This document shows, piece after piece, positions 10,654-33,316 of a stretch of DNA of 64,000 nt (positions within the stretch are counted from its first letter, which is position 1; the number at the start of each line of letters is the position of its first letter). The notes under the pieces are model-generated. The model made no database searches. It worked only from the letters and a program-made list of their open reading frames with translations, and had not been told where the DNA came from. The DNA comes from Elusimicrobiota bacterium (GTDB lineage Bacteria > Elusimicrobiota > Elusimicrobia > UBA1565 > UBA9628): positions 1,024 to 65,023 of the forward strand of contig DAHZHT010000007.1 in assembly GCA_027406905.1 (NCBI GenBank). The letters run 5' to 3'. The translations under genes and the position numbers were made by a program.

Positions 10654-10868
10654 TTTTTAATGGCGACGTTTCTAAATCCCGTCATGGCCCTAAGACGCTC
10701 GGCTAAATCGATGGGAATCTTTCCGGCGCGCGCCAAAAGATCGAAGCCTTCCGCCGAACTCTGCGGCACGCCCAGGCGCTCTTTCGCCGTTAGACGCATC
10801 GCCATATCAATGGCGGCTTGGCAAGCCCGCTCGATAATGGCCGCCTTGTTAAGGAGAACGTCATCCAT
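10650..10868 (-). pseudogene. hepT: Decayed hepT (DUF86-type HEPN toxin): internal in-frame deletion and C-terminal truncation
   Basis: From ATG 10868 it reads MDDVLLNKAAIIERACQAAIDMAMRLTAKERLGVPQSSAEGFDLLARAGKIPIDLAERLRAMTGFRNVAIKK-stop. Full-length DUF86 toxins have ~30 aa between the NK..IER helix and the C.A.ID.A helix, and continue RN.AVHDY...(+40 aa). Here the catalytic His and the C-terminus are absent. The longer track ORF (to 11033) is a spurious upstream extension through mntA. Confidence 0.65.
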
Positions 10869-11280
10869 GGCGCGGGAAATAGGACTCGAGAATGGGCCGA
10901 CGGTCCTCGCAGAAGCGGGCGTAATTAGACAAGACGCGCGTCTCAAACTCAAGCCGGGATTCTTCATCGGAGGAGAAAAGAACGACCCCATCCGCGACAA
11001 CTTCCTTGGCATGAACGAGAAATTCCTCGGCATTCAGGCTGGACGCCTCGACCAGAGAACCGGCGATTTTTGAAAGTTCCGCGTTCAGTTGGAGCAAAAC
11101 CTTCGGGTTCAATGAATGGCCGCGCGGGAAAAGAAGGGCCAGGTCCCAATCGCTGTCCTTGCGTTCAAGCCCCAGGGCGCGAGATCCGTAAAGATAGACG
11201 GCTAAAACGTCGGAAACGGTTCGGCGGATATGAGCCAACATTTTTTTGACGGCGCCGGGCATTGCGCTGAAATTTTCCAT
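10861..11280 (-). CDS. mntA: MntA-type nucleotidyltransferase antitoxin (apparently intact)
   Basis: 139 aa with LYGSRALGLERKDSDWDLALLF (GS...DxD). Its stop overlaps the hepT start (ATGGATGA). Confidence 0.75.
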   Translation of the reverse strand: MENFSAMPGAVKKMLAHIRRTVSDVLAVYLYGSRALGLERKDSDWDLALLFPRGHSLNPKVLLQLNAELSKIAGSLVEASSLNAEEFLVHAKEVVADGVVLFSSDEESRLEFETRVLSNYARFCEDRRPILESYFPRHG

Positions 11281-11393
11281 CCCTTACATTATACACAAAT
11301 CCCGACGAGGTTTCGCCCACTTTTTTCAGGCTCATCTTGCGTTGGATAATTCTGGCTATTGTTTTTTTCAAAAGCGCCTGTTATACTAGAGCT

Positions 11394-11642
11394 ATGCGAC
11401 GAAACTCCTCCCATCTCTACAAGGACTACAAGTGGATTGTCGCCGACCCGCGACTTCTGGGCGGGGGCTTGGCCGTTCGAGGCACTCGCCTTTCGGTTTC
11501 TCTCATCCTGGAGTGCCTCTCCAACGGCATGACCCTCGAAGATATCGACGAGAGTTTCGATCATGCCTTCCCGCGCGAGGCTCTTGCCGAAGTTCTGAAA
11601 GTCGCCGCGGAAGCGGCGAACTCCATCCATGTGGCTGCTTGA
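11394..11642 (+). CDS. DUF433-family small protein (antitoxin-like partner of DUF5615)
   Basis: Reads ...IVADPRLLGGGLAVRGTRLSVSLILECLSNGMTLEDIDESF, the typical DUF433 core. The start is taken at the internal ATG 11394, which lies 6 nt after a TATACT box. The track ORF starts at 11337. Confidence 0.65.
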   Translation: MRRNSSHLYKDYKWIVADPRLLGGGLAVRGTRLSVSLILECLSNGMTLEDIDESFDHAFPREALAEVLKVAAEAANSIHVAA

Positions 11643-11973
11643 CGCGAACATGGACGTGCATCTACTTTCTCTCCTACAGGAATTGGGGGTCGAATGTGAA
11701 GCCACGACCCGGCGCGGTTGGCAGGCCTTAAACAACGGCGACTTGGTTTCAGTCGCCGTAAAGGCTGGTTTTACTTGCATGCTGACCCAGGATCGCCTCT
11801 TTGGCGAAGCGGCGGCGCGAGCTCTCAAGGCTCATCCGCACTTTTCCGTGGTCGTTATCCATCTCGCGCAGTTTCCCTGGAAGCGATATCGCCAGAATTT
11901 TAATTCGGCTTGGTCAAAATCTCCAATCCGTCCCATCCCCGGGAAAATTACCCACTGGCCGATCTCCCTTTAA
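11629..11973 (+). CDS. DUF5615-family (PIN/Mut7-C-like) putative toxin
   Basis: 114 aa starting MWLLDANMDVHLLSLLQELGVE...GDLVSVAVKAGFTCMLTQDRLF. It overlaps the DUF433 gene by 14 nt, the usual two-gene arrangement. Confidence 0.6.
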   Translation: MWLLDANMDVHLLSLLQELGVECEATTRRGWQALNNGDLVSVAVKAGFTCMLTQDRLFGEAAARALKAHPHFSVVVIHLAQFPWKRYRQNFNSAWSKSPIRPIPGKITHWPISL

Positions 11974-12673: not shown

Positions 12674-13588
12674 TCAGAGAACGTCGGCAAACCCCTTGCG
12701 CGTCTTCTGAAACCAGACAAAACCAAGATAGGCCACGACAAGACTCGCCGCCCCGTAGATAGACAGGCCGGCCCAGTTAGGAAAACTCCCGCGCAAAACA
12801 ATCGCGCGCAATTCATCCACGGGAAAAGTCAGCGGATTGAGCGCGAAGAGGCGCCTCACCCAAAGGGGAAGAGAAGAATCCGGATAAAAAATGGGGCAGA
12901 GAAACATCAAGACCATCGTCACGATGCCGATCACTTGCCCGACGTCGCGTATATAAACCCCGAGCGAAGACAAAAACCAGACCAGCCCCGCCGTCATCAA
13001 AACCAGCGGCAATAAAACCAACGGCGACAACAAGGCCGTCCAGAAAACGCCGTGGGCGAAAAGCCCCAGGGCCGTCAATAAAATCGCCAGGCTCATTAAA
13101 AGGTTAAACAGAGCCGCCCCGACGGCAATCCAACAGAAATTCTCCAGCGGGAAAACGACTTTTTTGACGTAATTGGCGTTGCCCAGAATCAGCCCGGGCG
13201 CGCGGTTAAGGCATTCCGAAAAAAAGTTAAAAACGATAAGGCCGGTAAAGAGATTAAAGGTAAATTGCGCCATCGCCGACAAGGATTTGCGGCTCTCGGG
13301 GCTGCCCATGATATAGCCGAAAGCGAAAGTATAGACCGCCAAAAGAAGAAGCGGGTTTAAAATAGACCATAAGAGCCCGCCGAAAGACCCGCGGTAGCGC
13401 ACCGCCACGTCGCGCTTGCCCATGGTCCATACAAGAGTCCAGTTTCGCCAAAGAGAAAGAAACGGCGAGAAAAAGCCCAAAGAATAGGGCGACACCCCGG
13501 CGCGGTAAAGGACTGTGGAACGGCGCGAAACGCCTCTTTGTCCGCCGGAAGCGCCGGTTTCGGCAATGGGGTCTATCGCGGGCGTCAT
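12674..13588 (-). CDS. wzm: O-antigen/polysaccharide ABC exporter permease (ABC-2 type)
   Basis: 304 aa with six predicted helices and the ABC-2 N-terminal signature ...LVWTMGKRDVAVRYRGSFGGLLWSILNPLLLLAVY. It is the partner of wzt. Confidence 0.85.
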   Translation of the reverse strand: MTPAIDPIAETGASGGQRGVSRRSTVLYRAGVSPYSLGFFSPFLSLWRNWTLVWTMGKRDVAVRYRGSFGGLLWSILNPLLLLAVYTFAFGYIMGSPESRKSLSAMAQFTFNLFTGLIVFNFFSECLNRAPGLILGNANYVKKVVFPLENFCWIAVGAALFNLLMSLAILLTALGLFAHGVFWTALLSPLVLLPLVLMTAGLVWFLSSLGVYIRDVGQVIGIVTMVLMFLCPIFYPDSSLPLWVRRLFALNPLTFPVDELRAIVLRGSFPNWAGLSIYGAASLVVAYLGFVWFQKTRKGFADVL

Positions 13589-13633
13589 ACGCTCTTATTT
13601 TATCATTTTCCTCGCCCTCATCAACGAGAAATC
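13586..13633. repeat. 48-nt direct repeat, copy 1 (wzm start codon plus upstream leader)
   Basis: CATACGCTCTTATTTTATCATTTTCCTCGCCCTCATCAACGAGAAATC. Matches 14923-14970 at 46 of 48 positions. Confidence 0.9.
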
Positions 13634-13717
13634 GGCGCTTTTTTCGGACTCGTCCGCGTTGGAACATTCTTTGGTTTTACCATTTCAGTTAATTATATTT
13701 AGCTATAATCTAATGAA

Positions 13718-14338
13718 ATGGACATCCGCTCATTCTCAAACCTTCTGCGCGCGCACAAGCTGGCCCTTTTTTCCGCGGGCGATCTAAAAATTTTGCTGTC
13801 CCCAAGCGCGCGGCAGGGATTGTCCCTGCGGCTTCATCAGTGGCGCAAAAAAGGCTGGGTGTCCAGAATCAAGCGCGGTCTCTACCAGCTGGACTATCCG
13901 GAGCCGCCCGTGATTGCCGATCTTTATCTCGCCAATCGGATTTATGAGCCGTCTTATGTCTCTCTTGAAACGGCTCTCTCTCATTATCAGATTCTGCCTG
14001 AATTTTCAGCCCAGGTGACATCGGTCACTTCAAAGCCGACGCGGAGATTCACGAATTCTCACGGCCTTTTCACCTACACGACCATTCGCCCCTCGGCCTA
14101 CGCCGGCTATACGGCGATCAACCTGCAAGGCTGGCCCGTGCGCATGGCCGAGCCCGAAAAGGCGGTGATTGATCGACTCTACATCGCGCTGCGGCGGGGG
14201 GAAAACCTGGCTGACGTCGAAGACCGCTGGGACAAAGCGCGGATCAGAAGAATGAATTCCGGCAAACTGCGGGGCTATGCCGCGATTTTTAAATCGGCTG
14301 AAAACAAGCTCAAGAGGGCGCTCGATGCTTTCATATGA
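13718..14338 (+). CDS. abiEi: AbiEi-type antitoxin / transcriptional regulator (type IV TA, abortive infection AbiE)
   Basis: 206 aa with an N-terminal wHTH-like region ...RLHQWRKKGWVSRIKRGLYQL and a C-terminal region ...YEPSYVSLETALSHYQILPE...MAEPEKAVIDRLY. Confidence 0.7.
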   Translation: MDIRSFSNLLRAHKLALFSAGDLKILLSPSARQGLSLRLHQWRKKGWVSRIKRGLYQLDYPEPPVIADLYLANRIYEPSYVSLETALSHYQILPEFSAQVTSVTSKPTRRFTNSHGLFTYTTIRPSAYAGYTAINLQGWPVRMAEPEKAVIDRLYIALRRGENLADVEDRWDKARIRRMNSGKLRGYAAIFKSAENKLKRALDAFI

Positions 14339-14882
14339 GGGATTGATCGCTCGCTCTTTGGAAAGGGGAATGCCCGCGGGCAAGCTCAGGGGAGCGGTCA
14401 GGGAATACATTCAAATCCTGGCCTTAAAAGCCTTTTATGCGGCGCCCCGCGCGGAAGGGCTGGCTTTTTTGGGCGGCACGGCGTTGCGATTCGGATACGA
14501 CCTGCCGCGCTTTTCGGAGGACCTCGATTTTGACGTCCGCGATTTTTCTTTTCGGGAGTGGAAGGCGCTGCTGGAAGAGACGGCTCAAACTCTTTCTCGC
14601 CAGGGATTGTCTCTTGAAATGAGAGCTTCCGAGAAAGGAAGCCTTTTAAGCGGGGATATGCGGCTTCAAGGCGCGCGCATTCTAAGCGCCAAGGGCGTCG
14701 CGGGAGACACTCAAGACGTGATCGCATCGCGCTTGAAATTTTTTGGGTCCGCCAAGCTCTCGGTCATGGCCAAACGCCTCGAGCCATTTTTATTTAAGCC
14801 GGAGCAGGCCGATCTTGTCGCAAAAGCCCCGACTCTTTTGCCGGACGCCTTGGAATATTTGAAAGATGGAGGGATCTTTTAG
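14325..14882 (+). CDS. abiEii: AbiEii/AbiGii-family nucleotidyltransferase toxin (short form)
   Basis: Reads ...YIQILALKAFY...LAFLGGTALRFGYDLPRFSEDLDFDV, the AbiEii NTase motif. The start is taken at ATG 14325, which overlaps the abiEi stop. About 185 aa, shorter than many family members. Confidence 0.65.
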   Translation: MLSYEGLIARSLERGMPAGKLRGAVREYIQILALKAFYAAPRAEGLAFLGGTALRFGYDLPRFSEDLDFDVRDFSFREWKALLEETAQTLSRQGLSLEMRASEKGSLLSGDMRLQGARILSAKGVAGDTQDVIASRLKFFGSAKLSVMAKRLEPFLFKPEQADLVAKAPTLLPDALEYLKDGGIF

Positions 14883-14894
14883 GCGCGAAGTCAC

Positions 14895-14970
14895 CCTGCG
14901 AAAAACCCAGGGAATAGGGCGCCATGCGCTCTTATTTTATCATTTCCCTCGCCCTCATCAACGAGAAATC
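14895..14970. repeat. 48-nt direct repeat copy 2 (14923-14970) preceded by an echo of wzm codons ~33-40
   Basis: The repeat reads CATGCGCTCTTATTTTATCATTTCCCTCGCCCTCATCAACGAGAAATC. Minus-strand reading from this ATG gives MAPYSLGF..., compared with wzm ...VSPYSLGFF. At DNA level 14901-14922 matches 13472-13493 at about 18 of 22 positions. Confidence 0.8.
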
Positions 14971-19591: not shown

Positions 19592-21600
19592 CTTCCGGAA
19601 GGGACCCCAGGAGGATTTTCCACGCCCAAGAGAACGCCAAAAAGCGCCCTCGCCCTGACAAACTCCCCCCTTATTAACCGATCTAATATCGCGGCCATTA
19701 CCCCTAAACAAACTGTCGGCAAGGCCCAAGGAAAAAATTTTTTCGTAAATATAATTCTGTTTCTTATTTGATAATAATCGGCAAAAAGAGATCTTTTTCT
19801 TGGAAAACGCGCGCCGGCAGCGGTTGTTTTCCCTTCTTTATGGAAAATAAGGCTTTTAGGGGCATATGCCAAACAATAGCGCCCTCGCGCGCGCATCGCC
19901 CAGTCAAACTCTTCATAGTAGATAAAATAATTTTCATCCATGAGCCCGATTTCTTCAATAAATTTCCGCGACACAAGAGCCGAAGCTCCATAGATGCCGG
20001 AAAATAGTTTTTCCAATGTCTCCGGCGCGAACATCTCTTTTTTTTCTCCGAATCCAATCTGCGCTCCGGTTCCGAAAAGGGGATTAAAGCGCAACCCTCC
20101 GCGAGCCTGAATAAGCGTGGGAGAATCATAATAGACGACCGTAGAGCCGCAAATTCCGGCCCGCGGTTTTTCCCGCATTCGCTCAAGCAGGTAGGTCAAA
20201 GAGAGAGGCTCGACAACCGTATCATTATTGAGAAGCCAGCCGTAGCCGAACTCCGGCCTATTAAGCAGATAGCGAAGCCCCACATTGCAGCTGGCGGCAT
20301 AACCCCTATTCTTTAAAATCCTGACCAAAACAATGTCGGCTTGAGAAAAATTCTCCTCGCCGCCTTTGACCGCTTCGGCCTCGTCACAACAGATAAAAGA
20401 AACGCCGCTGTCTTGTGCCCATTGAATTAGACGCGGCCAGGAATCATTGGGAGATCCGCTATCACAGACGATTATCTGGCGAGAGGAGTGGCGGATTTTT
20501 CTTAAGCTCTCCAAACATTCAACGGTGTCTTGCCAATGACAATAGTTGGGGACAATGATTCCGACCTTTTCATCGGAGATTTGTTTCAGAGGCTTATTAA
20601 ATTCCTCCACCGCCTTGGCGATTTCATCCTTTGAAAAATTAAAAGCCTCATCACGTTCTCTCTCGGATATGGACTCGCCTTCGTAGGGTTGAAACGGCAA
20701 ATAACGGCAAAGGAAATGGTGATAAGGATGATTAGACACAACCCGAGAATCGGGAATGGTCGCGCCCCAAAAAGAAACGACAGGACAGCGCGACGTCAAG
20801 GCCAAATAGAGAAGCCCTCCATCAATGGAAAAAACCATGCGACTCAACGAAAAAAGCCCGACCAATTCCCCAAAATCCCGGCGCCCGCTCCAATCAACGA
20901 CCCAATCTTTCTTATCAAGGCCGAAATTCTTTGGCATAGAATCGCCGACAACAACTAGCTTTATTTCTTGTTCAAAACAATATTCCGCGATTCGATTGAT
21001 AAGAAATTCTGGCATATTCCTTTCCATGCTGCCCGTCGCGGGATAGAGAACCCCATATTTCCCGGGCTCAAGGCCCCGCTCTGAAAGAAGAGGCCTAATT
21101 TTTTCCCGAGCGCGGCTTAATATCGTCTCATCCAAAAAAATCGAATCGGAATTAAAATTAAGTCCAAACTGATACTCAAGACTGCGGATGTAAGAGAGAG
21201 GCCGATTGGTGATGCGCGGGGTTTTGGGGCTTAAGGTTTCAACATCAATGGTGTTCATGTAAATTATTTTTTTGACGCCTTGAAAAAACCGCAGAAACGG
21301 CGACAAGAGGGGCAAGAGAAATCGCGACAAGCCCAAAGGGTTGAGCCCATAGCCAAAATAACCGACGAGTAAAAAGATATCTAGATCCCGAATCTCCCGA
21401 CGCCAGCTTAAAGGAGAATGGCTTTGGTAAATCTTGATTCCCGCAATCGCCTTTTCCCTGGCCAAGAAATCATAAAGAGAGCGCGTAGACTCATTGCCCA
21501 CGCCGTAAACCTCATGGCCCGCATCCCGAAGGCCATACAAAAGCGGCAACGCCATCAAGATGTCTCCCAAGCCCGAGCCGTTGTGGATGCCAATTTTCAT
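19588..21600 (-). CDS. Bifunctional glycosyltransferase: GT9-like N-terminal domain + GT2 C-terminal domain
   Basis: 670 aa. N-terminus: MKIGIHNGSGLGDILMALPLLYGLRDAGHEV...IDGGLLYLA (GT9-like). C-terminus: VGIIVPNYCHWQDTVECLESL...IIVCDSGSPNDS...WLLNNDT (GT2). Confidence 0.7.
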   Translation of the reverse strand: MKIGIHNGSGLGDILMALPLLYGLRDAGHEVYGVGNESTRSLYDFLAREKAIAGIKIYQSHSPLSWRREIRDLDIFLLVGYFGYGLNPLGLSRFLLPLLSPFLRFFQGVKKIIYMNTIDVETLSPKTPRITNRPLSYIRSLEYQFGLNFNSDSIFLDETILSRAREKIRPLLSERGLEPGKYGVLYPATGSMERNMPEFLINRIAEYCFEQEIKLVVVGDSMPKNFGLDKKDWVVDWSGRRDFGELVGLFSLSRMVFSIDGGLLYLALTSRCPVVSFWGATIPDSRVVSNHPYHHFLCRYLPFQPYEGESISERERDEAFNFSKDEIAKAVEEFNKPLKQISDEKVGIIVPNYCHWQDTVECLESLRKIRHSSRQIIVCDSGSPNDSWPRLIQWAQDSGVSFICCDEAEAVKGGEENFSQADIVLVRILKNRGYAASCNVGLRYLLNRPEFGYGWLLNNDTVVEPLSLTYLLERMREKPRAGICGSTVVYYDSPTLIQARGGLRFNPLFGTGAQIGFGEKKEMFAPETLEKLFSGIYGASALVSRKFIEEIGLMDENYFIYYEEFDWAMRARGRYCLAYAPKSLIFHKEGKTTAAGARFPRKRSLFADYYQIRNRIIFTKKFFPWALPTVCLGVMAAILDRLIRGEFVRARALFGVLLGVENPPGVPSGR

Positions 21601-22751
21601 TTTGAATCAAAAAGTTCGCGAAGCCCGCTTTGCCAAGGCCTAATGTCCACCCCCTGGACCACCCTCGCGACGTCGCCCTCGTAAAAAAGCCAACAACGAT
21701 GCGGACGGCCGTAATAATTTTTAAAGCTCTCAAAGCCCTTCAATTCCTCGGCCCTGACGTTTTTGGAAGCCTTGATTTCAATGGCATGCGTTTCTCGCCC
21801 TATTTCGACGATTAAATCCACCTCGGCCCCGTGTTCGGTTCGGTATCCGCTTAACCGAATCTCCAAATCACGCGCGGCGGCTTCATGAAGGATTTGAGTA
21901 ACGACCAGATGTTCAAAGAGAAATCCCCGGCGATCCGCAGACACCGTGAAATTGCCCAGAAGCCCGTTGAGAACCCCGGGGTCAAAGAAATAAAACCGCG
22001 GATGTTGAATGAGACGCCTAACCGAGCTTTGGGCGAACGGCTCTATTTTTCGCGCCAGAAGAGAGTCCTCCAATATTTCAAAAAACCGCACCACCGATTG
22101 CCGCGGCGTTTGGGCGGCGGAGGCTATTTTCGAGAGATCCAAGAACTTCCCGGAGCTTTCCGCAGCGTGGCGCAGGAAACGCGCAAACCCCTCCAGATTT
22201 CTCGCGAGGCCCTCGGCCTGGACTTCTTCCTTGACATAGGCGGCCGCGTAGGATCTTAAGGTTTTTTCTTTTTCCAGCGCGCTTGATTCCGTCCATATCC
22301 CGGGCAAGGTTCCATGACTCATGGCCTCCTCGCCGCTGAAATCATACCCCAGCTCCTTGGCGCAAAGAGGCCCCATCGTAAAAGAATGAATTCTCCCCGG
22401 GAGAAGATTGGCTCGTCCGCGCTTAAGTTTTCTAGCGTTGGATCCGGTCAGATAAAACCGAAAGCGCCCGGGGAATTTATCGAGGAGAAATTGGATCGTG
22501 TTGAGAAGGCTCGGCAGTCGTTGGATTTCATCAATGAAAATCCGCGCCGGAAAACTCGCGGCTTTTAGGCGTTCTTCAAGTTCGCGGGGATTGCCTAGAA
22601 AATCAAGATAGGTCGGCTCATGCGCCAAATCAATCTCAATGTCAGGGCGCAGGCTTTTTATCAGAGTCGATTTTCCCGTCTGCCGCGGACCGAGAAGAAG
22701 CACGCTCTTTTTTCCGGAGGCCAAGACACGGCCCAGTTCTCTTGCTATCAT
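21597..22751 (-). CDS. COG1373-type AAA ATPase (AAA_14 + DUF4143 layout), copy 1
   Basis: 384 aa with Walker A GPRQTGKST and Walker B IFIDEIQ. The C-terminal part reads ...FEHLVVTQI...YRTEHGAEVDLIVE...AIEIK (nuclease-fold-like D/E-x-K region). There is a 4-nt overlap with the downstream GT gene. Confidence 0.75.
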   Translation of the reverse strand: MIARELGRVLASGKKSVLLLGPRQTGKSTLIKSLRPDIEIDLAHEPTYLDFLGNPRELEERLKAASFPARIFIDEIQRLPSLLNTIQFLLDKFPGRFRFYLTGSNARKLKRGRANLLPGRIHSFTMGPLCAKELGYDFSGEEAMSHGTLPGIWTESSALEKEKTLRSYAAAYVKEEVQAEGLARNLEGFARFLRHAAESSGKFLDLSKIASAAQTPRQSVVRFFEILEDSLLARKIEPFAQSSVRRLIQHPRFYFFDPGVLNGLLGNFTVSADRRGFLFEHLVVTQILHEAAARDLEIRLSGYRTEHGAEVDLIVEIGRETHAIEIKASKNVRAEELKGFESFKNYYGRPHRCWLFYEGDVARVVQGVDIRPWQSGLRELFDSK

Positions 22752-22757
22752 GCGGTT

Positions 22758-22787
22758 ATTTTACGCTGTATTTTAACCTCGTGTCAA
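22758..22787 (-). promoter_or_regulatory. Sigma70-like promoter abutting the start of ATPase copy 1: TTGACA-N18-TAAAAT-N6-ATG
   Basis: Read on the minus strand: TTGACA (22787-22782), an 18-nt spacer, TAAAAT (22763-22758), then 6 nt to ATG 22751. There is no Shine-Dalgarno sequence between them. Confidence 0.5.
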
Positions 22788-22817
22788 CCCGCCCCCGGTT
22801 CCATGCTGTCGGGCCCT

Positions 22818-24864: not shown

Positions 24865-25748
24865 TGTTTAACTTTGCTCCTTTCAAATGCGACGGTTAAT
24901 TCCAGCCCTTCTTTGAGGCTCGTGCGCGGGCTCCAGCCTAAATTTTTAATCGCGGTCAAATCTACCCGCGAATCCATCAGCTCGTTCTCTCGATAAGGCA
25001 AGGCGTCAAAATCTAAAAATGTATCCGTGTTAGCGGTTATCTTTTTGACTTCCTCGGCAAAATCCCGTATCGTAATAGCTTCGCCGGAAGCGATTTCATA
25101 AGAGAAAAATCCTTTTCCATGCCTTGACCCATGCTCAATAATACGCATAAAGGCTTCTATGACATCGTCAATATAAACAAAATCTCTTTTTTGAAGGCCC
25201 GGGGTTAATGGAATTTTCTTTTCATTGTTTAAAAGAGAATGAATAAGCCAGGTCGCGAATTTTGACTTATCATCTCCCGGACCGTAAAAATGTTCCAGGG
25301 CGACGTTAATACACGTCATCCGTGAGGAATAGATTTTTAGCCAGTCCTTGAACTGACTTTTAGATAAAGAATAATAGTTGACGCCCTTATCCAAAATGGT
25401 ATCCGTGTTAATAAAATAAGAAATTCCGTGTTCGGCCCCCAGCTGCAGAAGTTTAAGGGGTAAAATTAGATTGGCCTCAAGCACCGTCAAAGGCAAGGCA
25501 TTTTTTCTTCCATAATCGGTAGCGCAGTGAATGACGGCATCTATAGAATTTTCTTTAAACAGAGATTGCAAATCGATTTCTTCCAAACGGAAAAATTTAA
25601 TTTTATCAGCGGCCGAAGAAAGGCGAGAGAGACGGGAAGATTGGCGACGCAACGCGATAACACTAAACTTTTTGTCTATCAATGCCCTCGCGACATTGGA
25701 CCCCAAAAACCCGGTGGCTCCGGTAAGTAAAACGGTAGGGTTAGACAC
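24861..25748 (-). CDS. NAD(P)-dependent SDR, CDP-paratose/abequose synthase-like 4-reductase
   Basis: Has VLLTGATGFLGSN (Rossmann) and ...YSLSK (YxxxK). It sits between the rfbH-type and tyv-type genes, as prt does in Salmonella/Yersinia. The start is taken at GTG 25748, which overlaps the stop of the rfbH-like remnant. The track ORF extends to 25787. Confidence 0.6.
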   Translation of the reverse strand: MSNPTVLLTGATGFLGSNVARALIDKKFSVIALRRQSSRLSRLSSAADKIKFFRLEEIDLQSLFKENSIDAVIHCATDYGRKNALPLTVLEANLILPLKLLQLGAEHGISYFINTDTILDKGVNYYSLSKSQFKDWLKIYSSRMTCINVALEHFYGPGDDKSKFATWLIHSLLNNEKKIPLTPGLQKRDFVYIDDVIEAFMRIIEHGSRHGKGFFSYEIASGEAITIRDFAEEVKKITANTDTFLDFDALPYRENELMDSRVDLTAIKNLGWSPRTSLKEGLELTVAFERSKVKQ

Positions 25749-25857
25749 TCTTAAAAAAATCCCCGAAAATCGAGGCGGCGTATCCAATCATATCGGGCGT
25801 AATTCCCGGATCAACGCCGTAAAATGTTCCGTTCATGGCCTCATGATAATATATCAT
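25741..25857 (-). pseudogene. 3-prime remnant (38 codons) of a second rfbH/DegT-family gene
   Basis: Minus-strand reading gives MIYYHEAMNGTFYGVDPGITPDMIGYAASIFGDFFKSV-stop. The genuine RfbH C-terminus is ...[34 protein letters not shown]-stop. DNA core: CCGGGAATTACGCCCGA(T/G)ATGATTGGATAC. Confidence 0.75.
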
Positions 25858-25887
25858 TAAACGCGGAAGCGGAGCGTCTTTTTAATC

Positions 25888-27072
25888 TCAAGCGAAACCC
25901 AATATTTCGCCCAGCATTTGCCACGGAACGGCCGTTCCGTGCGGGAATTTCTGGGGCCTTTCCACTTGGCAGACCAGATAAGCCGCGTCGCATTTTTCAT
26001 CTCTCCGGAAAGAGACAAGTCCCGAGAAATCCGATTCGCGCGGCTTGGCCGTAGCCTTGATTTCAATAGCGAGGCGCTTGGCGGATTTTTCAACGACCAA
26101 GTCGACTTCCTCGCCTTTCTTGTTTCGCCAATAGGAGAATCGGCAATCTTTTGACGCGGCCACGGCCTCAAGAATGATCAGGTGTTCGAATAAGAGTCCC
26201 ATTTGGAGAACCAAAAGACCCGGGTCATGCCCAACGCCGGAGGCGGCATTTCTCACGCCAAGATCGAAAAAATAATATTTAGATTTGTGAACGATATTAG
26301 AACGGCTTTTTCCAAACGCCTCCAGACGGTGGATGATGAGGCTGTCCTCTAATATCTGGAAGTAATCTCGAATCGAGGTGTGACTCACCCCCACTTCGCC
26401 CGCCATTTTGCTGAAGTTGGGGCTTGTTCCGGATTCAAGAGCGGCAAGACGCAAAAACTTCGCGAAGGGCGGAAAACTCCGGATCACCGCTTCCCGTCTA
26501 ATTTCTTCTTCGAGATATAAATCCGAGTAAGATCTCAGGCTTTCCACCCTCAAATCCGCCTTTTCGGACAATATTCCCGGCAGCCCGCCAAAAAGAAGCC
26601 TCTCTTTGAACGCCGTCCCGTTGGGGTCGCCTGCGGCAACAAGACCGCTTTCTTTCCAAGTCAACGGATGAAGACGCTCGATAATGACGCGGCCGGGCAG
26701 CCAATTGGCCTGGGTTTGCCGCATTTTCCGCGCCGAAGAGCCCGTGGCGATCAAAACCGCTTTTTTTTCGTCCAGAAGATACTGCAAAACATCCATGACG
26801 GCGGGGACTTTCTGGATCTCATCGATAAAGACCACGGGGCGGCCGCGGCCGGAGGCGGCCTCAATTTCCCGCCGAAGGCTTTCCGGATCAGCCTCGATTT
26901 TAGCGCGCACGGATGGCAGTTGCAATGGATATTCCATACAACGCGGCATCTTGGCGCAAACGGCTTTGATGAGGGTCGTTTTCCCCGTTTGCCGAGGACC
27001 GAACAGAATCACGGAACGCCCGGCCTTAAGCAAGGTCCGGAGTTTGAGCTCGAGAATACGATTGAAAGTCAT
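25888..27072 (-). CDS. COG1373-type AAA ATPase (AAA_14 + DUF4143), copy 2 ('cassette A')
   Basis: 394 aa with Walker A GPRQTGKTT and Walker B VFIDEIQ. The C-terminus reads ...FEHLIILEA...WRNKKGEEVDLVVE...AIEIK. Confidence 0.75.
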   Translation of the reverse strand: MTFNRILELKLRTLLKAGRSVILFGPRQTGKTTLIKAVCAKMPRCMEYPLQLPSVRAKIEADPESLRREIEAASGRGRPVVFIDEIQKVPAVMDVLQYLLDEKKAVLIATGSSARKMRQTQANWLPGRVIIERLHPLTWKESGLVAAGDPNGTAFKERLLFGGLPGILSEKADLRVESLRSYSDLYLEEEIRREAVIRSFPPFAKFLRLAALESGTSPNFSKMAGEVGVSHTSIRDYFQILEDSLIIHRLEAFGKSRSNIVHKSKYYFFDLGVRNAASGVGHDPGLLVLQMGLLFEHLIILEAVAASKDCRFSYWRNKKGEEVDLVVEKSAKRLAIEIKATAKPRESDFSGLVSFRRDEKCDAAYLVCQVERPQKFPHGTAVPWQMLGEILGFA

Positions 27073-27101
27073 AGTTTCAATTATACCTAATAATTGAAAC
27101 T
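27073..27101. promoter_or_regulatory. Perfect 11-bp inverted repeat abutting the start codon of ATPase copy 2; contains a TATAAT box
   Basis: AGTTTCAATTA-tacctaa-TAATTGAAACT. On the minus strand this reads ...GGTATAAT-TGAAACT-ATG, so the -10 box lies 7 nt from the ATG. Confidence 0.5.
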
Positions 27102-27107
27102 AGTTAT

Positions 27108-27129
27108 TTCAATTTGGTTTCAAAGCCGC
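27108..27129. repeat. 22-nt cassette right-end motif, copy 1
   Basis: TTCAATTTGGTTTCAAAGCCGC, identical to 28434-28455. After 2 nt it is followed by AACGCGGAAGTGGA (27132-27145), which matches 25860-25873 at 13 of 14 positions. Confidence 0.85.
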
Positions 27130-27162
27130 TCAACGCGGAAGTGGAAATTAGTCACCGACAAT

Positions 27163-28356
27163 TCATAACAGCGCCGCAAGCAGCGCGTCCGCCGAAATGA
27201 CTCTCACTCCATCAATCAACTTGTCGACCCCTTTCTTCTTAATGACCTGATAGCAAAATGGAATTTTCAGTCTTTCCTTAAAATACCTCATGCTGGAGGA
27301 CACTTCTTCATCCTGAGTCTTCGCTTCGACCGCAAACCAAGGCTTTTCACCCACAGTCACGAGAAAATCCACCTCTCTTTTTGCGGCATCCCGCAGAAAG
27401 TAAAGTTTTGCCTTGTAGCCTTCCCTGTCCTGAAGCCAATGGGTGAGTTTGAGCAGATGGGAAGCGATAATGTTTTCAAAACGCGCCGATTCTTTTTCCA
27501 ACTCGGACCAGTCCCAAAGATAAAGCTTGGGCTCTTTCTTGAGAGAGCGAAAGGGGCCGCGCGCATAGGGATAGATTCGAAAGTGGTAGTAAAACGATTC
27601 CAGGATATCCAGCCAGCGGGATGCCGCGCGGTGACTGACATCCAAGTCTTCTCGGATGGCGTTCACCGAAAGAAGCGCGCCAACCTTGCTTGGAAGCATG
27701 TCTCCCAACAGTTTCATCCGGCCAATATCAAGGATCATTTCGGTGTCGCGGATATCCTCGCGGAACAACCTCTCATTGCGTTCGTTGTGCCATCTGCGCA
27801 ATGTCCGCTCATCCTGAGATATCAACGGTTCCGGGAAGCCGCCGAATTTTTCTAAAACATCAAACTCGTTTCCCGGCCTCATCGCGGCAATCTGGATTTC
27901 CTTGAAAGGCTCAATCCGGGTTTTGAGGCCGAGCATCTCACTGAGGGTGAAGGGATGCAGCCGGTAATAATGATAGCGGCCCTGAAGAGAGTCCCCGCCC
28001 TTGCGATAAAGATCAAGACGCGCGCTTCCAGTAATTAAGAACTTGAACCTGTCTTTGAGCGTGTCATACTGACCCTTGATAAACCTTTTCCAGCCTTTAA
28101 ATTTATGAATTTCATCTAAAATGATAAGCTCAGCGCTTCCCGGCCACTGGGATGCAATCAGCCGCTGGCGCTGTTGCCTGTTGTCCCAGTTAAAGTAGGC
28201 GGTCTCTTTAAAGCGCGCTCCAACGAGGGTTTGAGCCAAGGTCGTCTTGCCAATCTGCCGCGGACCGCCAAGAAAGACCATCTTCTTTTCAAGGTCCTCG
28301 ACGATCGGGGCGCTTAGGTAGCGTTCCTTTGGCTTTGGCACAGAAATAGAATACAT
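27163..28356 (-). CDS. COG1373-type AAA ATPase (AAA_14 + DUF4143), copy 3 ('cassette B')
   Basis: 397 aa with Walker A GPRQIGKTT and Walker B IILDEIH. The C-terminus reads ...FENIIASHL...REVDFLVT...AVEAK. It is only distantly related to copies 1 and 2. Confidence 0.75.
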   Translation of the reverse strand: MYSISVPKPKERYLSAPIVEDLEKKMVFLGGPRQIGKTTLAQTLVGARFKETAYFNWDNRQQRQRLIASQWPGSAELIILDEIHKFKGWKRFIKGQYDTLKDRFKFLITGSARLDLYRKGGDSLQGRYHYYRLHPFTLSEMLGLKTRIEPFKEIQIAAMRPGNEFDVLEKFGGFPEPLISQDERTLRRWHNERNERLFREDIRDTEMILDIGRMKLLGDMLPSKVGALLSVNAIREDLDVSHRAASRWLDILESFYYHFRIYPYARGPFRSLKKEPKLYLWDWSELEKESARFENIIASHLLKLTHWLQDREGYKAKLYFLRDAAKREVDFLVTVGEKPWFAVEAKTQDEEVSSSMRYFKERLKIPFCYQVIKKKGVDKLIDGVRVISADALLAALL

Positions 28357-28382
28357 AAATTTTTGCCTAGAAGCAAAAATTT
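28357..28382. promoter_or_regulatory. Perfect 10-bp inverted repeat abutting the start codon of ATPase copy 3
   Basis: AAATTTTTGC-ctagaa-GCAAAAATTT starts on the nucleotide next to ATG 28356. A second TTTTGC/GCAAAA pair follows at ~28393-28408. Confidence 0.45.
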
Positions 28383-28433
28383 ACATGTTTAATTTTGCTT
28401 TTGGGCAAAAAACAACTCAAGGGATCCCAAATC

Positions 28434-28455
28434 TTCAATTTGGTTTCAAAGCCGC
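28434..28455. repeat. 22-nt cassette right-end motif, copy 2
   Basis: TTCAATTTGGTTTCAAAGCCGC, located 10 nt from the rfbH stop codon. Confidence 0.85.
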
Positions 28456-28465
28456 GCCTGAGGCC

Positions 28466-29827
28466 TCATCTAAGGCCTTGAAAGAATCCCGAAAACTGCT
28501 CAAGGATGTATCCAATCATCTCGGGCGTAATTCCCGGATAGACCCCGATCCAGAAAGTCCGGTTCATCACAAGGTCGGTATTGATTAAATCCCCCACCAC
28601 GCGATGGGAAACGCCCTTAAAATACGGCTGGCGAACGATATTGCCGGCAAAGAGAAGGCGAGTCGCGATTTTATGGTCTTCCAAAAAGCGCGTCAATTTT
28701 TCGCGCTGAAACGGCGCGTTTTCCCTGACCGTAATCGGAAATCCAAACCACGCGGGATCGGAACCCGGCGTCGCTTGCGGGAGAATCAAAAACTCCTCAA
28801 AACGGGCAAGGCCTTCTTTTAAAAGTTTGAAATTGCGCCGCCGGGCGGCGATGAAAGAATCCAGCTTGTCCAGTTGAGAAAGCCCGACAGCCGCCTGCAT
28901 GTCGGTGGCTTTGAGATTATAGCCGATATTGGTATAGGTGTATTTATGATCGTAACCGCAGGGAAGCTCCCCAAGCTGCCAGTCAAAGCGCTTGCCGCAG
29001 GTGTTGTCTTTGCCCGGCGCGCACCAACAATCCCGCCCCCAATCGCGAAAAGACTCAAGCTGGGTCACCAAACGCGCGTTATTGGTCGCGACCGCTCCGC
29101 CTTCGCCCATGGTGATGTGATGCGCCGGATAAAAAGAATACGTCGCCAAATCCCCAAAACTGCCGACGGTCTTTCCTTTATAAGTCGAACCTAAAGCGTC
29201 GCAGGAATCTTCAATGAGCCAGAGATTGTGCTTGTCCGCGAAAGACTTGACGGCGTCCAGATTAAAGGGATTTCCCAAGGTGTGCGCGATCATGACGGCG
29301 CGAGTTTTATCCGACAAAGCCGCTTCAAGAAGCTCCGTTTTTGCGTCGTAGGTGCCCAGTTCCACATCGAGAAAGACCGGGATCAAGCCATTTTGAATCA
29401 TCGGGTTAATGGTCGTCGGGAAAGAGGCGGCGACCGTAATGACCTCATCTCCGGGCTGAAGCCTTTTTTCGCCCAGGGCCTCGGCAGTCAGGGCGGAAAC
29501 GGCAAGCAAATTGGCGGAGGAACCGGAGTTGACCAAGGTCGCATTTCTCACCCCGATTCTTTGGGCCAATTTTTTTTCAAAAGCCGAGGCAAAACGTCCG
29601 GTGGTCAGCCAAAAGTCAAGGCCAGAATCGGAAAGAGAGACCATGTCTTTTTCGTCAAAGACTTTCCCGGACACGGGAACGGGACTCACTCCCGGAACAA
29701 ACGGCTTAGGCGCATGTTTAAACTCATAAAAACGCCGCACGGCCTTAAAAACTTCTTCTCTTAAATCCGCCTCGCGAGCGGCTAAAACCTCCGTCGTCGT
29801 TGAGGAAGATTTTTGTTTGGAAGTCAT
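28466..29827 (-). CDS. rfbH: CDP-4-keto-6-deoxy-D-glucose 3-dehydrase (E1; RfbH/DdhC, DegT/DnrJ/EryC1 fold)
   Basis: 453 aa (long RfbH-type DegT member): ...[14 protein letters not shown]...[11 protein letters not shown]...[14 protein letters not shown].... It sits directly after rfbG with a 4-nt overlap. Confidence 0.8.
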
Positions 29828-30999
29828 GGCATGGGGAGCGGGAATCCAGATTCATGGCCCGCCCAGGACAACTCGGCTTTTAAAGCCGCTGCGGCGTAAC
29901 CCCGAATTTGACCCCGCGTGAAATTAAAGGCGTCAAAACCGGGTTCTTGAGAAGCGCGGTACCATTCCATCGTGCGCGCAATTGCCGCTTCGAGATCATA
30001 GACCGGTTTCCAATTTAGGCGCTCCATGGCTTTTGAGCTGTCAAGCTGAAGAAGACCCGCCTCATGCGGAGAAGAGGGATCAACGGCGTCTCGCTTTTCG
30101 CCCGATCCCCACGCCTTTAAAACAAGGTCCACCACTTCCCCGACACAACGCGCCGAACCCAGACGCGGGCCGAAATTCCAGGCCTCGGAATACTTTTGGG
30201 GATCTGACCACTGAAGAGAGGCTAGCCTTAAATAGCCCGACAAAGGATCGAGCACGAACTGCCAAGGCCGCACCGCTCGGGGATTGCGAACGGCAATGGG
30301 GCGAAAAGCCATGAGAGAGCGCGCGCAGTCCGGGATGAGACGATCTTGAGCCCAATCGCCGCCGCCGATCACGTTTCCGGCCCTTGTCGAACTGAGCGAA
30401 ACGCTTCCCATCTTCGTTTTTCCCTCATCCCGACCTTCTCCCACAAGGGGAGAAGGGGTTCTCGTGAAAAAAGACGCGCGGTAAGAAGACACGACCATTT
30501 CCGCGCAGGCTTTGGAGGCGCTGTAAGGGTCTCTTCCGCCCAAAGGATCAGTTTCCTTGTAGGCATAATCGATTTCGCGGTTTTCATAGCATTTGTCGGT
30601 GGTGATCACCTGGCAGACGCGAACAGAACTCGTCTTTCGAACCGCCTCCAAAAGATGCGCCGTTCCAAGAACGTTGACCGCGAAAGTCCCAATCGGCTCG
30701 TCATATGAGCGCCGGACCAAGGGCTGGGCGGCCAAATGAAACACGATTTCGGGACGGGTCTCGCGCAATATTTTTTGAACCAACTCCAGATCCCGAACGT
30801 CTCCCAGGCGGGAATCCATTAAATTTTGAAGCCCCAGCTGTTCGTAAAGATTCGGCTGGGCCTCGGGCGGCAAGGCAAGACCGACGACGTTGGCGCCGAG
30901 CTCCGTCAGCCACAAAGAAAGCCAGGAGCCCTTAAAGCCCGTATGCCCCGTGACAAGCACGGTTTTCCCGGAAAAAACACCGCCGAAGATCTCGCTCAT
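29824..30999 (-). CDS. rfbG: CDP-glucose 4,6-dehydratase
   Basis: 391 aa: [18 protein letters not shown]...[11 protein letters not shown]...[11 protein letters not shown]. About 12 extra residues ([12 protein letters not shown]...) lie before the [11 protein letters not shown] motif. Confidence 0.85.
30434..30456. repeat. Perfect 9-bp inverted repeat embedded in-frame in rfbG
   Basis: CCTTCTCCC-acaag-GGGAGAAGG. It encodes part of the extra peptide [11 protein letters not shown]. Confidence 0.8.
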
Positions 31000-31020
31000 T
31001 TAAAAAAAAGATTCATCGCT

Positions 31021-31356
31021 TCAGGGTCTCGCCACATGAGATCGGGCGATGATTCGCCCAATCTCCGGATTGGACGCGCCCAACGCGAGCAACGAACGAA
31101 TAATCAAATCAACGGAAACGGAATCGTCAGCCGCCTCCATTTTAGCCACTCGGCTTTGGCTCGATCCGACGAGCTTGGCCAAACCTATTTGCCCTAAGCG
31201 GCGACGATGGCGTTTCTGTCTGAGACTTTCGGCTAATTTTAGCTTAAGCTCGATATACTCGGATTCCTGATTCGACAGGGACAATAATTCCTCAACTCCG
31301 CCCACTCGCCACCCCTTGGCCTCAAGCCGCCTGCGTTTGGACTCACGCATCATCAT
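31021..31356 (-). CDS. higA: XRE-family HTH antitoxin (HigA-like)
   Basis: 111 aa: ...LRQKRHRRRLGQIGLAKLVGSSQSRVAKMEA... (HTH). It overlaps the upstream toxin gene by 14 nt. Confidence 0.7.
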   Translation of the reverse strand: MMMRESKRRRLEAKGWRVGGVEELLSLSNQESEYIELKLKLAESLRQKRHRRRLGQIGLAKLVGSSQSRVAKMEAADDSVSVDLIIRSLLALGASNPEIGRIIARSHVARP

Positions 31357-31675
31357 AACTCATCAATCGTTCCTTGCTTAATTTTATAATTCTCTTGGGC
31401 GTCTCCCGAGTTTTCTTAGCAAAAATCTCCGCGATCACAATCGCATCCGAGTCTACGCGATAGATGATGCGCCAACTCGCCGCCGCATCGGCAATCCGAA
31501 GCTCATGGCAATGAAAACCAACCGAAGGCATCGGCCTTGAGTGAGGCATGCCGATAGACTCTCCTCTCTGTAGTCGCCGCAACAAAAACCCGGCCTGAAT
31601 TCTCGCTTTTCTGGAGAACGGAGGGGTTCTAATTTCGCCATGCAGCCACGCCAGAGGCTTATCAATCAAGCCCAT
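31343..31675 (-). CDS. higB: HigB/RelE-superfamily toxin (phage Gp49-like, DUF891 type)
   Basis: 110 aa: ...GEIRTPPFSRKARIQAGFLLRRLQRGE...HELRIADAAASWRIIYRVDSDAIVIAEIFAKKTRETP. Toxin-first order, as in higBA. Confidence 0.7.
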   Translation of the reverse strand: MGLIDKPLAWLHGEIRTPPFSRKARIQAGFLLRRLQRGESIGMPHSRPMPSVGFHCHELRIADAAASWRIIYRVDSDAIVIAEIFAKKTRETPKRIIKLSKERLMSYDDA

Positions 31676-31679
31676 AAAG

Positions 31680-31708
31680 ATTGTATATCAAATATGACAT
31701 ATTGTCAA
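31680..31708 (-). promoter_or_regulatory. higBA promoter with palindromic operator: TTGACA-(AATATG-T-CATATT)-TATACA/TACAAT, 4-6 nt from the ATG
   Basis: The minus strand reads TTGACAATATGTCATATTTGATATACAATCTTT-ATG. A 13-bp palindrome (31691-31703) lies between the -35 and -10 boxes. Confidence 0.5.
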
Positions 31709-31729
31709 GACGCGGACTACTTCCAGATT

Positions 31730-31828
31730 TTCCGTCAACCACAGAGAAAGCCAGGAACCCTTAAAGCCGGTGTGTCCGGTGACAAGCGCTGTTTTCCCGG
31801 AAAACACGCCGCCGAAGACCGATTTCAT
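31730..31828 (-). pseudogene. 5-prime remnant (first ~33 codons) of a second rfbG allele
   Basis: The remnant reads [33 protein letters not shown], compared with rfb[34 protein letters not shown]. Its ATG overlaps the stop of the HEPN gene (ATGA). After codon 33 the frame runs into the higB promoter and stops. Confidence 0.85.
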
Positions 31829-32232
31829 TGTAAACTTTTTTCCACTTTTCCAAGCCAAAGATCTAAGGATGCCGCATATGCCGGCAGATTCTCATAGAGA
31901 CTATTGGCGACGCCTTCATCATAGGTATGCGCGGTCAGGTTTCGGGCATCCGCCATTTTTAAGGCGGTTTCAGCCTCGGACTCATCAAGAAAGCCCACTT
32001 CGCGGCTGGCGCGAATGCAGCCCTTTGGAGAACCGATAGACAGCGCCTCTTCCTGGGAAAGATAGAGCTGGACAGCCTTCCAAACGGCCTCGAAAGAATA
32101 CTCAAAACGCTGTATCGCCGCATCGCGCCTTTCCGAAGAAGGGCGGATCGCATACCCAACGGGCCCCGCCAGATCCAGAAAAGTGTTGAGCGCTTTTCGC
32201 GCCACGCTCACGCGTGCTTCTAAGCGTTCCAT
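31825..32232 (-). CDS. HEPN-domain protein, HI0074 family (second copy in the window)
   Basis: 135 aa: ...RDAAIQRFEYSFEAVWKAVQLYL...ADARNLTAHTYDEGVA (R-x4-H). Confidence 0.7.
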   Translation of the reverse strand: MERLEARVSVARKALNTFLDLAGPVGYAIRPSSERRDAAIQRFEYSFEAVWKAVQLYLSQEEALSIGSPKGCIRASREVGFLDESEAETALKMADARNLTAHTYDEGVANSLYENLPAYAASLDLWLGKVEKSLQ

Positions 32233-32564
32233 GAGACTCCTTCTTCAAATACGCGCTCGCGAAAAGCCTTGGAAGTTTCGTTGAGGTTTACGATCTCCAC
32301 TCGATAAGGCACGGCGCTTTCCTCAAGCGCCTCGGACAAACTCGACAGCAGGACAGGCGAAAGCTCTCGAAGAGGATAAATTCCAATATCAATGTCGGAT
32401 GTCGGTCGCTCCTCTCTTCGCGCCCAAGAGCCGTAAAGATAGACCCGCGCCTGATTTTTAGGGATAAACCGAAAAACAATTTCCTTAACTTCCATAAGGT
32501 AGCGAAAATGACGCTCTTTCTCGTTAGAGGATATGTTCTGAGCCTTCACTTCCACACCTTCCAT
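32220..32564 (-). CDS. Minimal nucleotidyltransferase (MNT, HI0073-like; second copy)
   Basis: Reads [23 protein letters not shown] (GS...DxD). The start is uncertain: ATG 32564 overlaps the rfbF end, and ATG 32495 is an alternative. The track ORF starts at 32633. Confidence 0.65.
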
Positions 32565-33316
32565 GGAGCTTTTCCGGAAGACCACAATTCTTCCAAATGG
32601 TTTTTGTCGCGCAAAGTGTCCATCGGCTGCCAAAATCCCTCGTGAAAATAAGCGCGAAGGCTTCCTTGTTGGGACAACTGCGCCAAAGGTTCTCTTTCCC
32701 AGATCATCTCATCTCCGGAGATTAAATCCAGGACTTGGGGCTCTAAGACAAAAAAACCGCCATTGATCCAAGCTCCATCCCCATGGGGCTTTTCAAGAAA
32801 ACGAAGAACGCTTGAGCCTTTCAGTTCAAGAGCCCCAAAACGCCCCGGAGGCTGAACCGCCGTCAAGGTCGCGAGGTTCTTATGCGAACGGTGAAAATCA
32901 ACGAGTTTTTGAATATCCACGTTCCCCACGCCGTCGCCGTAGGTCAGGCAAAAAGTCTTGTCGCCGACATAGTCTTTAACGCGCTTGATCCGACCGCCCG
33001 TCATCGTCGCCTCTCCGGTGTCCACCAAGGTCACCTTCCAGGGCTCCGCGCTATTTTGATGGATTTTCATCGAGTTATTGGCCATGTCAAAAGTGACATC
33101 GGACATATGGAGAAAATAATTGGCGAAATATTCCTTGATCATGTATCCCTTGTATCCCAGGCAAATAATGAAATCATGGATGCCGTAATGGGAATAGATT
33201 TTCATCACGTGCCACAAAATGGGTTTGCCGCCAATCTCAATCATCGGCTTTGGACGCAGGGACGTTTCCTCGCTGATGCGGGTGCCCAACCCCCCGGCCA
33301 GTATTACCGCTTGCAC
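32546..33316 (-). CDS. rfbF: Glucose-1-phosphate cytidylyltransferase
   Basis: 256 aa: (M)[66 protein letters not shown] start preceded by GGAGAAAG. Confidence 0.9.

Follow-up and report, generated by a model that had tools for sequence, protein, structure and literature searches.

A 64-kb stretch of DNA from an Elusimicrobiota bacterium (contig DAHZHT010000007.1; the whole stretch is called the window below) contains two tandem genes for AAA_14/DUF4143 ATPases, here named A and B, which lie downstream of rfbH and share short identical sequences at their ends. They are part of an O-antigen cluster of the ABC-transporter type (rfbF, rfbG, rfbH, epimerases, glycosyltransferases, wzm and wzt), whose closest relatives are Elusimicrobiota metagenome-assembled genomes. 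The locus is encoded entirely on the minus strand, with the gene order rfbH, ATPase B, ATPase A, an rfbH-like remnant and an epimerase gene. The features are the following, in gene order (nt, nucleotides; ORF, open reading frame):

28466–29827, minus strand: rfbH, CDP-6-deoxy-D-xylo-4-hexulose-3-dehydrase of the DegT family (Pfam PF01041, E 8e-93); its homologues carry the name RfbH
28434–28455, minus strand: 22-mer copy 1, upstream of B (exact repeat)
28407–28433, minus strand: possible A-type relic, GATTTGGGATCCCTTGAGTTGTTTTTT, with marginal resemblance to the 3' ends of A units
28357–28412, minus strand: B promoter region with a 26-nt imperfect palindrome (inverted repeat I1)
27163–28356, minus strand: ATPase B, AAA_14 plus DUF4143, PDC-S01 match
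27132–27153, minus strand: 3' relic of a small ORF after B, including the 14-mer (27132–27145); 27132–27144 is the deletion joint
27108–27129, minus strand: 22-mer copy 2, distal part of the A upstream region, with two TTGAAA repeats
27073–27107, minus strand: proximal promoter/operator-like region of A (inverted repeat I2)
25888–27072, minus strand: ATPase A, AAA_14 plus DUF4143, PDC-S01 match
25857–25883, minus strand: small-ORF relic after A, the last eight codons plus TAA (KKTLRFRV*), including the 14-mer (25860–25873)
25741–25836, minus strand: rfbH' 3' remnant of 31 codons plus stop, right copy of a long direct repeat

The 22-mer TTCAATTTGGTTTCAAAGCCGC is present in two exact copies (27108–27129 and 28434–28455), as is the 14-mer AACGCGGAAGYGGA (25860–25873 and 27132–27145). 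Neither repeat was matched in 100 shuffled sequences, no third copy of the 22-mer was found in the window when up to three mismatches were allowed, and no further copy of the 14-mer was found there; the twofold occurrence of both motifs is far above chance. An original prediction, made from the sequence of the window, had interpreted these motifs as conserved termini of two single-gene cassettes. Its positions for the twin motifs are confirmed, and so are the 2-nt gap (27130–27131) that separates unit A from unit B and the distances of 35 nt (A) and 77 nt (B) from the 22-mer to the start codons. The distances from the 14-mer to the stop codons, given as 15 and 18 nt, are in fact 14 nt (A) and 17 nt (B). 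It was also correct in stating that the two proteins share the COG1373 layout while being strongly diverged: both have AAA_14 and DUF4143 domains and they are 22% identical. The pair is not a recent tandem duplication, as the prediction had stated, and A and B are unrelated by recent descent.

To trace the origin of the motifs, the window was compared with thirteen loci (L001–L013), including fetched loci that encode close RfbH homologues and loci with homologues of A or B. The 14-mer aligns with coding sequence. In L008, a small ORF, fused to a truncated fragment of a zeta-toxin gene, comes after rfbH (92% identical); this ORF is intact and terminates in AAAAAGACGCTTCGCTCCCGTGTCTAA (KKTLRSRV*), its end reading ...AAAAAGACGCTTCGCTCCCGTGTC-TAA-TGATAT.... 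L007 has a full-length zeta toxin (PF06414, 38 bits) with the same small ORF downstream, which reads ...ACTCCCACTTCCGCGTT-GA-GCGGCTTTGAAACT..., directly into the 22-mer of A. The end of the ORF, ...AAAACGAACTCCCACTTCCGCGTT, thus enters GCGGCTTTGAAACTAAATTGAA of the 22-mer via GA, followed by gene A, and a second copy of AAAAAGACGCCCCGCTTCCGCGTT-TAA-TGATAT is found 3' of A. Since ten copies of small-ORF ends from five loci align as one homologous family, the 14-mer represents the last few codons of the small ORF that lies 3' of the zeta-toxin gene at the same locus in L007 and L008. The window retains eight codons and the stop of this ORF after A, and about 22 nt of it after B. Gene A itself sits just before the stop codon of the small ORF, and about 24 nt of this ORF recur on the other side of the gene. 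Neither folding nor a scan for consensus terminators and promoters revealed a terminator-like structure at the 14-mer. A different assignment, in which the remnant continues as rfbH sequence through the spacer and the 14-mer, was rejected; the small-ORF alignment fits those bases better.

The close abutment of the two units can be compared with the same region of L007, which is 97.7–97.9% identical to the window across more than 12 kb. A segment of 2,015 nt (L007 10685–12699) is absent from the window, and window positions 27132–27144 align to both edges of this segment (10672–10684 and 12700–12712). Furthermore, the 14-mer of the window, TCCACTTCCGCGTT, is a recombinant of the L007 copies TCCACTCCCGCGTT and CCCACTTCCGCGTT. 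The 2-nt abutment is thus a deletion joint between direct repeats of 13–14 nt, by which 2,015 nt were lost in the lineage of the window. The extra L007 segment is pieced together from relics of the locus: the start of a transketolase gene, an AbiE fragment in the opposite orientation, half of a small ORF, a further rfbH' remnant, the zeta toxin and the small ORF.

The 22-mer is the outer (distal) part of the upstream region of A itself, because it travels with A into the unrelated context of L002. This locus encodes an A homologue with 95% protein identity between a glycosyltransferase gene and a radical-SAM gene; the homology starts at position 2 of the 22-mer (19/22 identities) and extends across the region of the TTGAAA repeats and TATAAT up to the ATG. 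The 22-mer also accompanies A in L007 (21/22), L001 and L012; L003 and L013 retain just the final ~8 nt of it, together with the proximal promoter of A. This proximal region consists of the palindrome ATTGAAA-N7-TTTCAAT followed by TATAAT (27080–27085), 7 nt 5' of the ATG, and is kept at every A-type locus (L001, L002, L003, L007, L012 and L013). In both A and the third ATPase gene of the window (C, described below), -10-like hexamers (TATAAT and TAAAAT) are located 6–7 nt 5' of the ATG without a Shine-Dalgarno sequence (27073–27087 and 22752–22800); this combination suggests that the transcripts of A and C are leaderless.

Copy 1 of the 22-mer, in contrast, does not belong to the promoter of B. 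The promoter palindrome of B, which differs from that of A, accompanies homologues of B with 85% identity in the unrelated contexts of L005 and L006, where both the 22-mer and the 14-mer are absent, and in L012 the 22-mer meets the promoter of B at another point than in the window. Possibly, copy 1 marks the left end of what was once an A-type unit, since deleted internally: the 27 nt after the 22-mer of B marginally resemble the A 3' ends of the window, L001 and L003.

A much longer repeat was found further outwards. The 3' end of rfbH is duplicated over ~94 nt, bracketing the ATPase array (25750–25836 and 28477–28567, 74% identical), and this duplication around the whole slot is the real bounding repeat. 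The last ~90 nt of rfbH make up its left copy. The right copy lies in the rfbH' remnant, which is 88.5% identical to the end of the intact rfbH' in L008 and whose stop codon overlaps the GTG start of the epimerase gene (25748). The content of the slot is the 3' end of rfbH, the 22-mer, an ATPase gene and a small-ORF relic. In L012 this arrangement is present twice, in tandem. The first unit comprises the rfbH end, a 10-nt spacer, the 22-mer, B and a relic; the second comprises a full middle copy of the rfbH 3' end, spacer, 22-mer, A (as a pseudogene) and a relic, and is followed by the remnant and the epimerase gene. The first 24 nt of the middle copy are of the remnant type (22/24, with the 3-nt deletion of the remnant), and over the last 65 nt it corresponds to the intact rfbH end, spacer and 22-mer (63/65). 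Unequal homologous recombination between the flanking repeats is expected to generate such a hybrid. The joint of L012 is also present in L001, with an internal deletion. L008 has a single rfbH' end but different cargo.

Several other candidate boundary signals were considered and dropped. The sequence ATGAGGCC, found after the rfbH stop codon and before the remnant, was initially read as an 8-bp target-site duplication. A transketolase start at both sites was considered as well; downstream of the relics ATGAGGCC fits such a start, with L004, L007 and L001 aligning there, but this reading fails for the spacer after rfbH, which is CGAAACCGCC in L012. A terminal inverted repeat between the unit ends is limited to a common CGCGG, which is too weak.

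The spot at the 3' end of rfbH has been hit independently in the more distant L009, in which 44 nt of the rfbH 3' end are separately duplicated (3904–3947 and 4217–4260); the two copies flank about 270 nt of non-coding sequence that includes a GC-rich hairpin. The ATPase genes at the locus are often reduced to relics of their ends. In L001 (5612–6880), what remains of C is its promoter, about 10 codons from the start and about 15 from the end, and just upstream of this relic lies the gene for another ATPase, 39% identical to B. An allele of A in which 25958–27057 is replaced by TAAAAC, so that 5 codons at the start and 23 at the end are left, was seen in five metagenomes (X4–X8, of the eight, X1–X8, that were examined for this DNA). 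In L013, a fragment resembling residues ~62–80 of A-type proteins was observed about 150–230 nt upstream of the A-type promoter of a degraded A-type gene.

Taken together, we consider it highly probable that A and B are self-promoted PDC-S01 ATPase genes residing in a rearrangement hotspot downstream of rfbH, and that their shared termini are scars rather than recombination sites. The locus is a recombinase-free hotspot, and its short common motifs are relics of insertions, duplications and a 2-kb deletion. The predicted serial capture at one spot is retained in this respect: the site downstream of rfbH took up several genes in turn. We propose that the original entries may have occurred via recombinase-free insertion with long target duplication, and that unequal homologous recombination, involving the two rfbH 3' copies, could have amplified the slot. 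B may have inserted beside an earlier A-type copy that later decayed by internal deletion, which would explain why B lies behind the 22-mer.

Some observations weigh against this explanation. The A-type 3' relic upstream of B is marginal (p 0.02–0.08 against shuffles), which leaves the origin of the 22-mer of B inferred, and the GATTTGGGATCCCTTGAGTTGTTTTTT relic (28407–28433) is missing from L012. A clean empty site, with rfbH directly followed by the epimerase gene and one repeat copy, was not found among the loci of the relatives, and the order of events is therefore reconstructed rather than observed. The ~24-nt small-ORF repeats flanking A in L007 mismatch at 5 positions, which is excessive for a recent target duplication. 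The evidence from populations consists of assembled contigs rather than raw reads. Finally, the left end of the A unit is at the same position within 1–2 nt in three contexts, which fits a discrete mobile unit as well. Given this coincidence, the unit could have a defined end, and PDC-S01 genes and the adjacent toxin-antitoxin modules could be seen as autonomous selfish units, each a promoter plus ORF, that enter without a recombinase, perhaps by means of their own PD-(D/E)XK nuclease, with long target duplication, repeat amplification and mutual replacement beside a decaying older copy. We regard this more far-reaching proposal as unlikely.

Site-specific cassettes, integron-like or other, in which the 14-mer and 22-mer are half-sites for serial insertion by a recombinase encoded elsewhere, would account for two divergent genes bounded by identical short motifs, for the GTTRRRY-like core in the junction CGCGTTGAGC and for population variants that break precisely at 27132 and 27144. 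Integron attC sites are imperfect inverted repeats of about 55–140 nt that fold as a hairpin, the core GTTRRRY is conserved at every cassette boundary, and the integrase IntI is encoded with attI nearby. Like integron cassettes, A and B are single tandem genes in one orientation with short common boundary motifs, but they have their own promoters, and neither an attC structure nor a consistent core nor an integrase accompanies them. Both strands of the three junctions were folded and gave only stems of 4–6 bp, at z -0.1 to -1.8 versus shuffles. The B/A junction has GTTGAGC, but the other junctions, GTTTAAT (after A) and GTTCAGT (after B in L004 and L007), misfit the core, and the rfbH/B boundary has no GTT. 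No recombinase, integrase or transposase domain, and thus no IntI-type tyrosine recombinase, was detected in about 58 ORFs of the window, nine of which have no Pfam hit; the prediction had likewise reported no recombinase. Where close homologues of A and B lie in different surroundings (L003, L005, L006 and L013), neither motif is present in full, and exact scans of genome and metagenome contig collections gave no match to the 22-mer. The expectation that the motifs recur elsewhere was accordingly not borne out, except that the distal region of A keeps 19 of the 22 nt in L002. In addition, L007 holds 2 kb of locus relics within the supposed composite site. The abutment is accounted for by a 2,015-nt deletion. 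The motifs, which did not recur elsewhere, are accounted for by duplicated local sequence, namely a coding relic and a promoter-distal segment, an outcome that the original prediction had itself named as contrary to its proposal. The cassette reading is largely refuted and can hardly be given any credence.

Two other explanations concern the nature of the motifs and of the joint. The motifs might be functional regulatory sites kept by selection or gene conversion, the 22-mer as an operator for the winged helix of the ATPase and the 14-mer as a terminator or RNA element. The two TTGAAA repeats of the 22-mer do recur in the proximal promoter of A, and the copies are identical (22/22) in the window while those of L007 differ by 1 nt, which hints at gene conversion. 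Against this, the conserved promoter of B elsewhere has another palindrome and no 22-mer, the 22-mer adjoins this promoter at a different point in L012, and the 14-mer is coding in relatives and lacks terminator-like structure; no Rfam family matched, and the consensus scan found nothing at the motifs. We therefore judge a regulatory function of this kind to be quite improbable. Alternatively, the B/A junction could be an assembly artefact, a jump between 14-mer copies in a mixed population whose true genome is L007-like. DNA of this locus occurs in sediment and mine-drainage metagenomes, and only L007-type junctions, as loose ends at 27132 and 27144, are present in seven of the eight examined (X1 and X3–X8); words specific to the B/A junction gave no match in any indexed run. 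The window-type joint is represented by a single 47-nt contig (depth 2.2) in X2, but this contig spans 27117–27161, and a repeat of 13–14 nt is below any usual assembly k-mer. Moreover, several runs show further microhomology deletions here that are real variants, and X1 has one at CCGCGTT. An artefact is for these reasons very unlikely, and the deletion joint remains the preferred explanation of the abutment.

Long flanking duplications were also detected elsewhere in the cluster by comparison of the window with itself. The selfish or defence modules scattered through the cluster are mostly on the strand of the operon, and comprise three MNT/HEPN pairs, a Gp49/HTH pair, an AbiEi-like gene and the three AAA_14/DUF4143 ATPase genes. 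Three of them are listed here:

30902–31834, minus strand: Gp49/HTH toxin-antitoxin module within a 104-nt duplication of the rfbG 5' end
21597–22751, minus strand: ATPase C, third PDC-S01-type gene, in a separate slot
13580–14970, unstranded: AbiEi-like module within a 54-nt direct repeat

The Gp49 (HigB-like)/HTH pair (31021–31675) is flanked by copies of the duplication at 30902–31004 and 31731–31834 that are 84% identical. The rfbG remnant ORF upstream of the pair runs into a near-consensus promoter, TTGACA-17-TACAAT (31680–31708). In L009, rfbF is directly followed by rfbG with a single target copy, which represents the uninterrupted site for this insertion. The 54-nt repeat (13580–13633 and 14917–14970, 94% identical) derives from the divergent intergenic region between wzm and the flippase gene, and encloses the AbiEi-like gene (13718–14338) and an unannotated ORF of 109 residues (14398–14727). 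The assignment of C as a third COG1373 ATPase, already made in the prediction, is supported by its AAA_14 and DUF4143 domains; its stop codon overlaps the start of the next glycosyltransferase gene (ATGA).

Further variation was observed in and around the cluster. Two clear MNT/HEPN-type nucleotidyltransferase pairs are located inside the polysaccharide cluster (9884–10653 and 31825–32633), and a third is possible at 10861–11828, where the second ORF has no Pfam hit; the pair at 9884–10653 and the possible third lie between wzt and wzm. Nearly all intergenic junctions of rfbF-G-H are variable. L007 has an extra DUF7718 gene and a 68-residue ORF between rfbG and rfbH (7397–8042, corresponding to 29773–29861 of the window), and BrnT-type pairs occupy other junctions of this operon in L008, L010 and L011. 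Within rfbG (30400–30467), contigs of X2–X4 have the 18-nt sequence GCCGYSCCCGGCYTTGAA in place of 66 nt, and the alignment with L007 breaks there too. A direct repeat of 80 nt (7193–7272 and 7403–7482, 90% identical, 210 nt apart) lies within the gene for a multidomain glycosyltransferase of 1395 residues.

All three ATPases have AAA_14 (PF13173, E 1e-20 to 1e-27) and DUF4143 (PF13635, E 1e-21 to 3e-28) domains, and match the PADLOC PDC-S01 models over their full length (E 1e-47 to 1e-58). B has the Walker A motif GPRQIGKTT, the Walker B motif ILDE and the nuclease motif VD...VEAK. In an alignment of 50 sequences, G25, R27, Q28, G30, K31, D84 and E85 of Walker A and B are invariant, and E322/D324...E337-x-K339 are invariant or nearly so. 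The AlphaFold model of A (pLDDT 91.7) has as best structural matches the Walker ATPase 2qen of P. abyssi and Orc1/Cdc6, proteins in which an AAA+ domain is joined to a winged helix. A sequence search of the PDB matched a generic AAA domain and no closer relative, and an exact look-up of protein A gave no match. DUF4143 has been assigned to the PD-(D/E)XK superfamily (PMC3424549), and PDC-S01 has been described as an ATPase fused to a PD-(D/E)XK domain, very common and awaiting validation (PMC12988326); a literature search on AAA_14 in defence yielded only irrelevant papers. The ATPases are probably NTP-dependent, DNA-binding nucleases acting in phage defence or as addictive selfish genes. The role in defence or addiction is a published candidate (PDC-S01) and not a new idea; the suggestion of the original prediction that the family is defence-related holds at this candidate level, through the PADLOC match.

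In their likeness to PDC-S01/COG1373, that is, the full-length model match and the PD-(D/E)XK class, nothing sets these three proteins apart, and the link to the O-antigen operon is one of context only. The locus does show candidate defence and toxin-antitoxin genes colonising, and turning over inside, a surface-polysaccharide operon, as followed in near-isogenic relatives and co-occurring strains, with steps that are seen or inferred: entry with long target duplication, amplification by unequal crossover, and microhomology deletions that leave small relics. The result also disposes of an attractive but mistaken idea, that of an integron-like cassette system in Elusimicrobiota, and cautions that identical short motifs around divergent genes can be relics and not recombination sites.

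Among known systems, the minimal mobile elements or allelic gene islands of Neisseria are exchanged by homologous recombination between conserved flanking genes. The differing content between rfbH and the downstream sugar genes in the window, L004, L007, L008, L009 and L012 is similar, but the flanks here include duplicated pieces of the flanking gene itself. The closest known pattern is insertion with long target duplication, described for restriction-modification genes, for which a cycle of invasion, repeat-mediated amplification and release has been proposed (Nobusato et al. 2000; Furuta et al. 2010, PMC2853133). Such units have direct repeats of host sequence of more than 30 bp and no transposase or integrase, and often lie inside operon-like clusters (PMC2853133). 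Similarly, the repeats of 94, 104 and 54 nt (74%, 84% and 94% identical) around three modules of the window are host-derived, the array is 2.7 kb long (<20 kb) with only two ATPase genes and no transposase or integrase, and the hybrid middle repeat of L012 corresponds to the amplification. It differs in that the cargo consists of PDC-S01 ATPases and toxin-antitoxin/Abi modules instead of restriction-modification genes, that the host is an uncultured member of the Elusimicrobiota, and that the slot of the ATPase genes is a nested mosaic, with no clean empty site found for comparison. The locus is a tidy case of a known kind of event, extending the restriction-modification pattern to one of the commonest unvalidated defence candidates.

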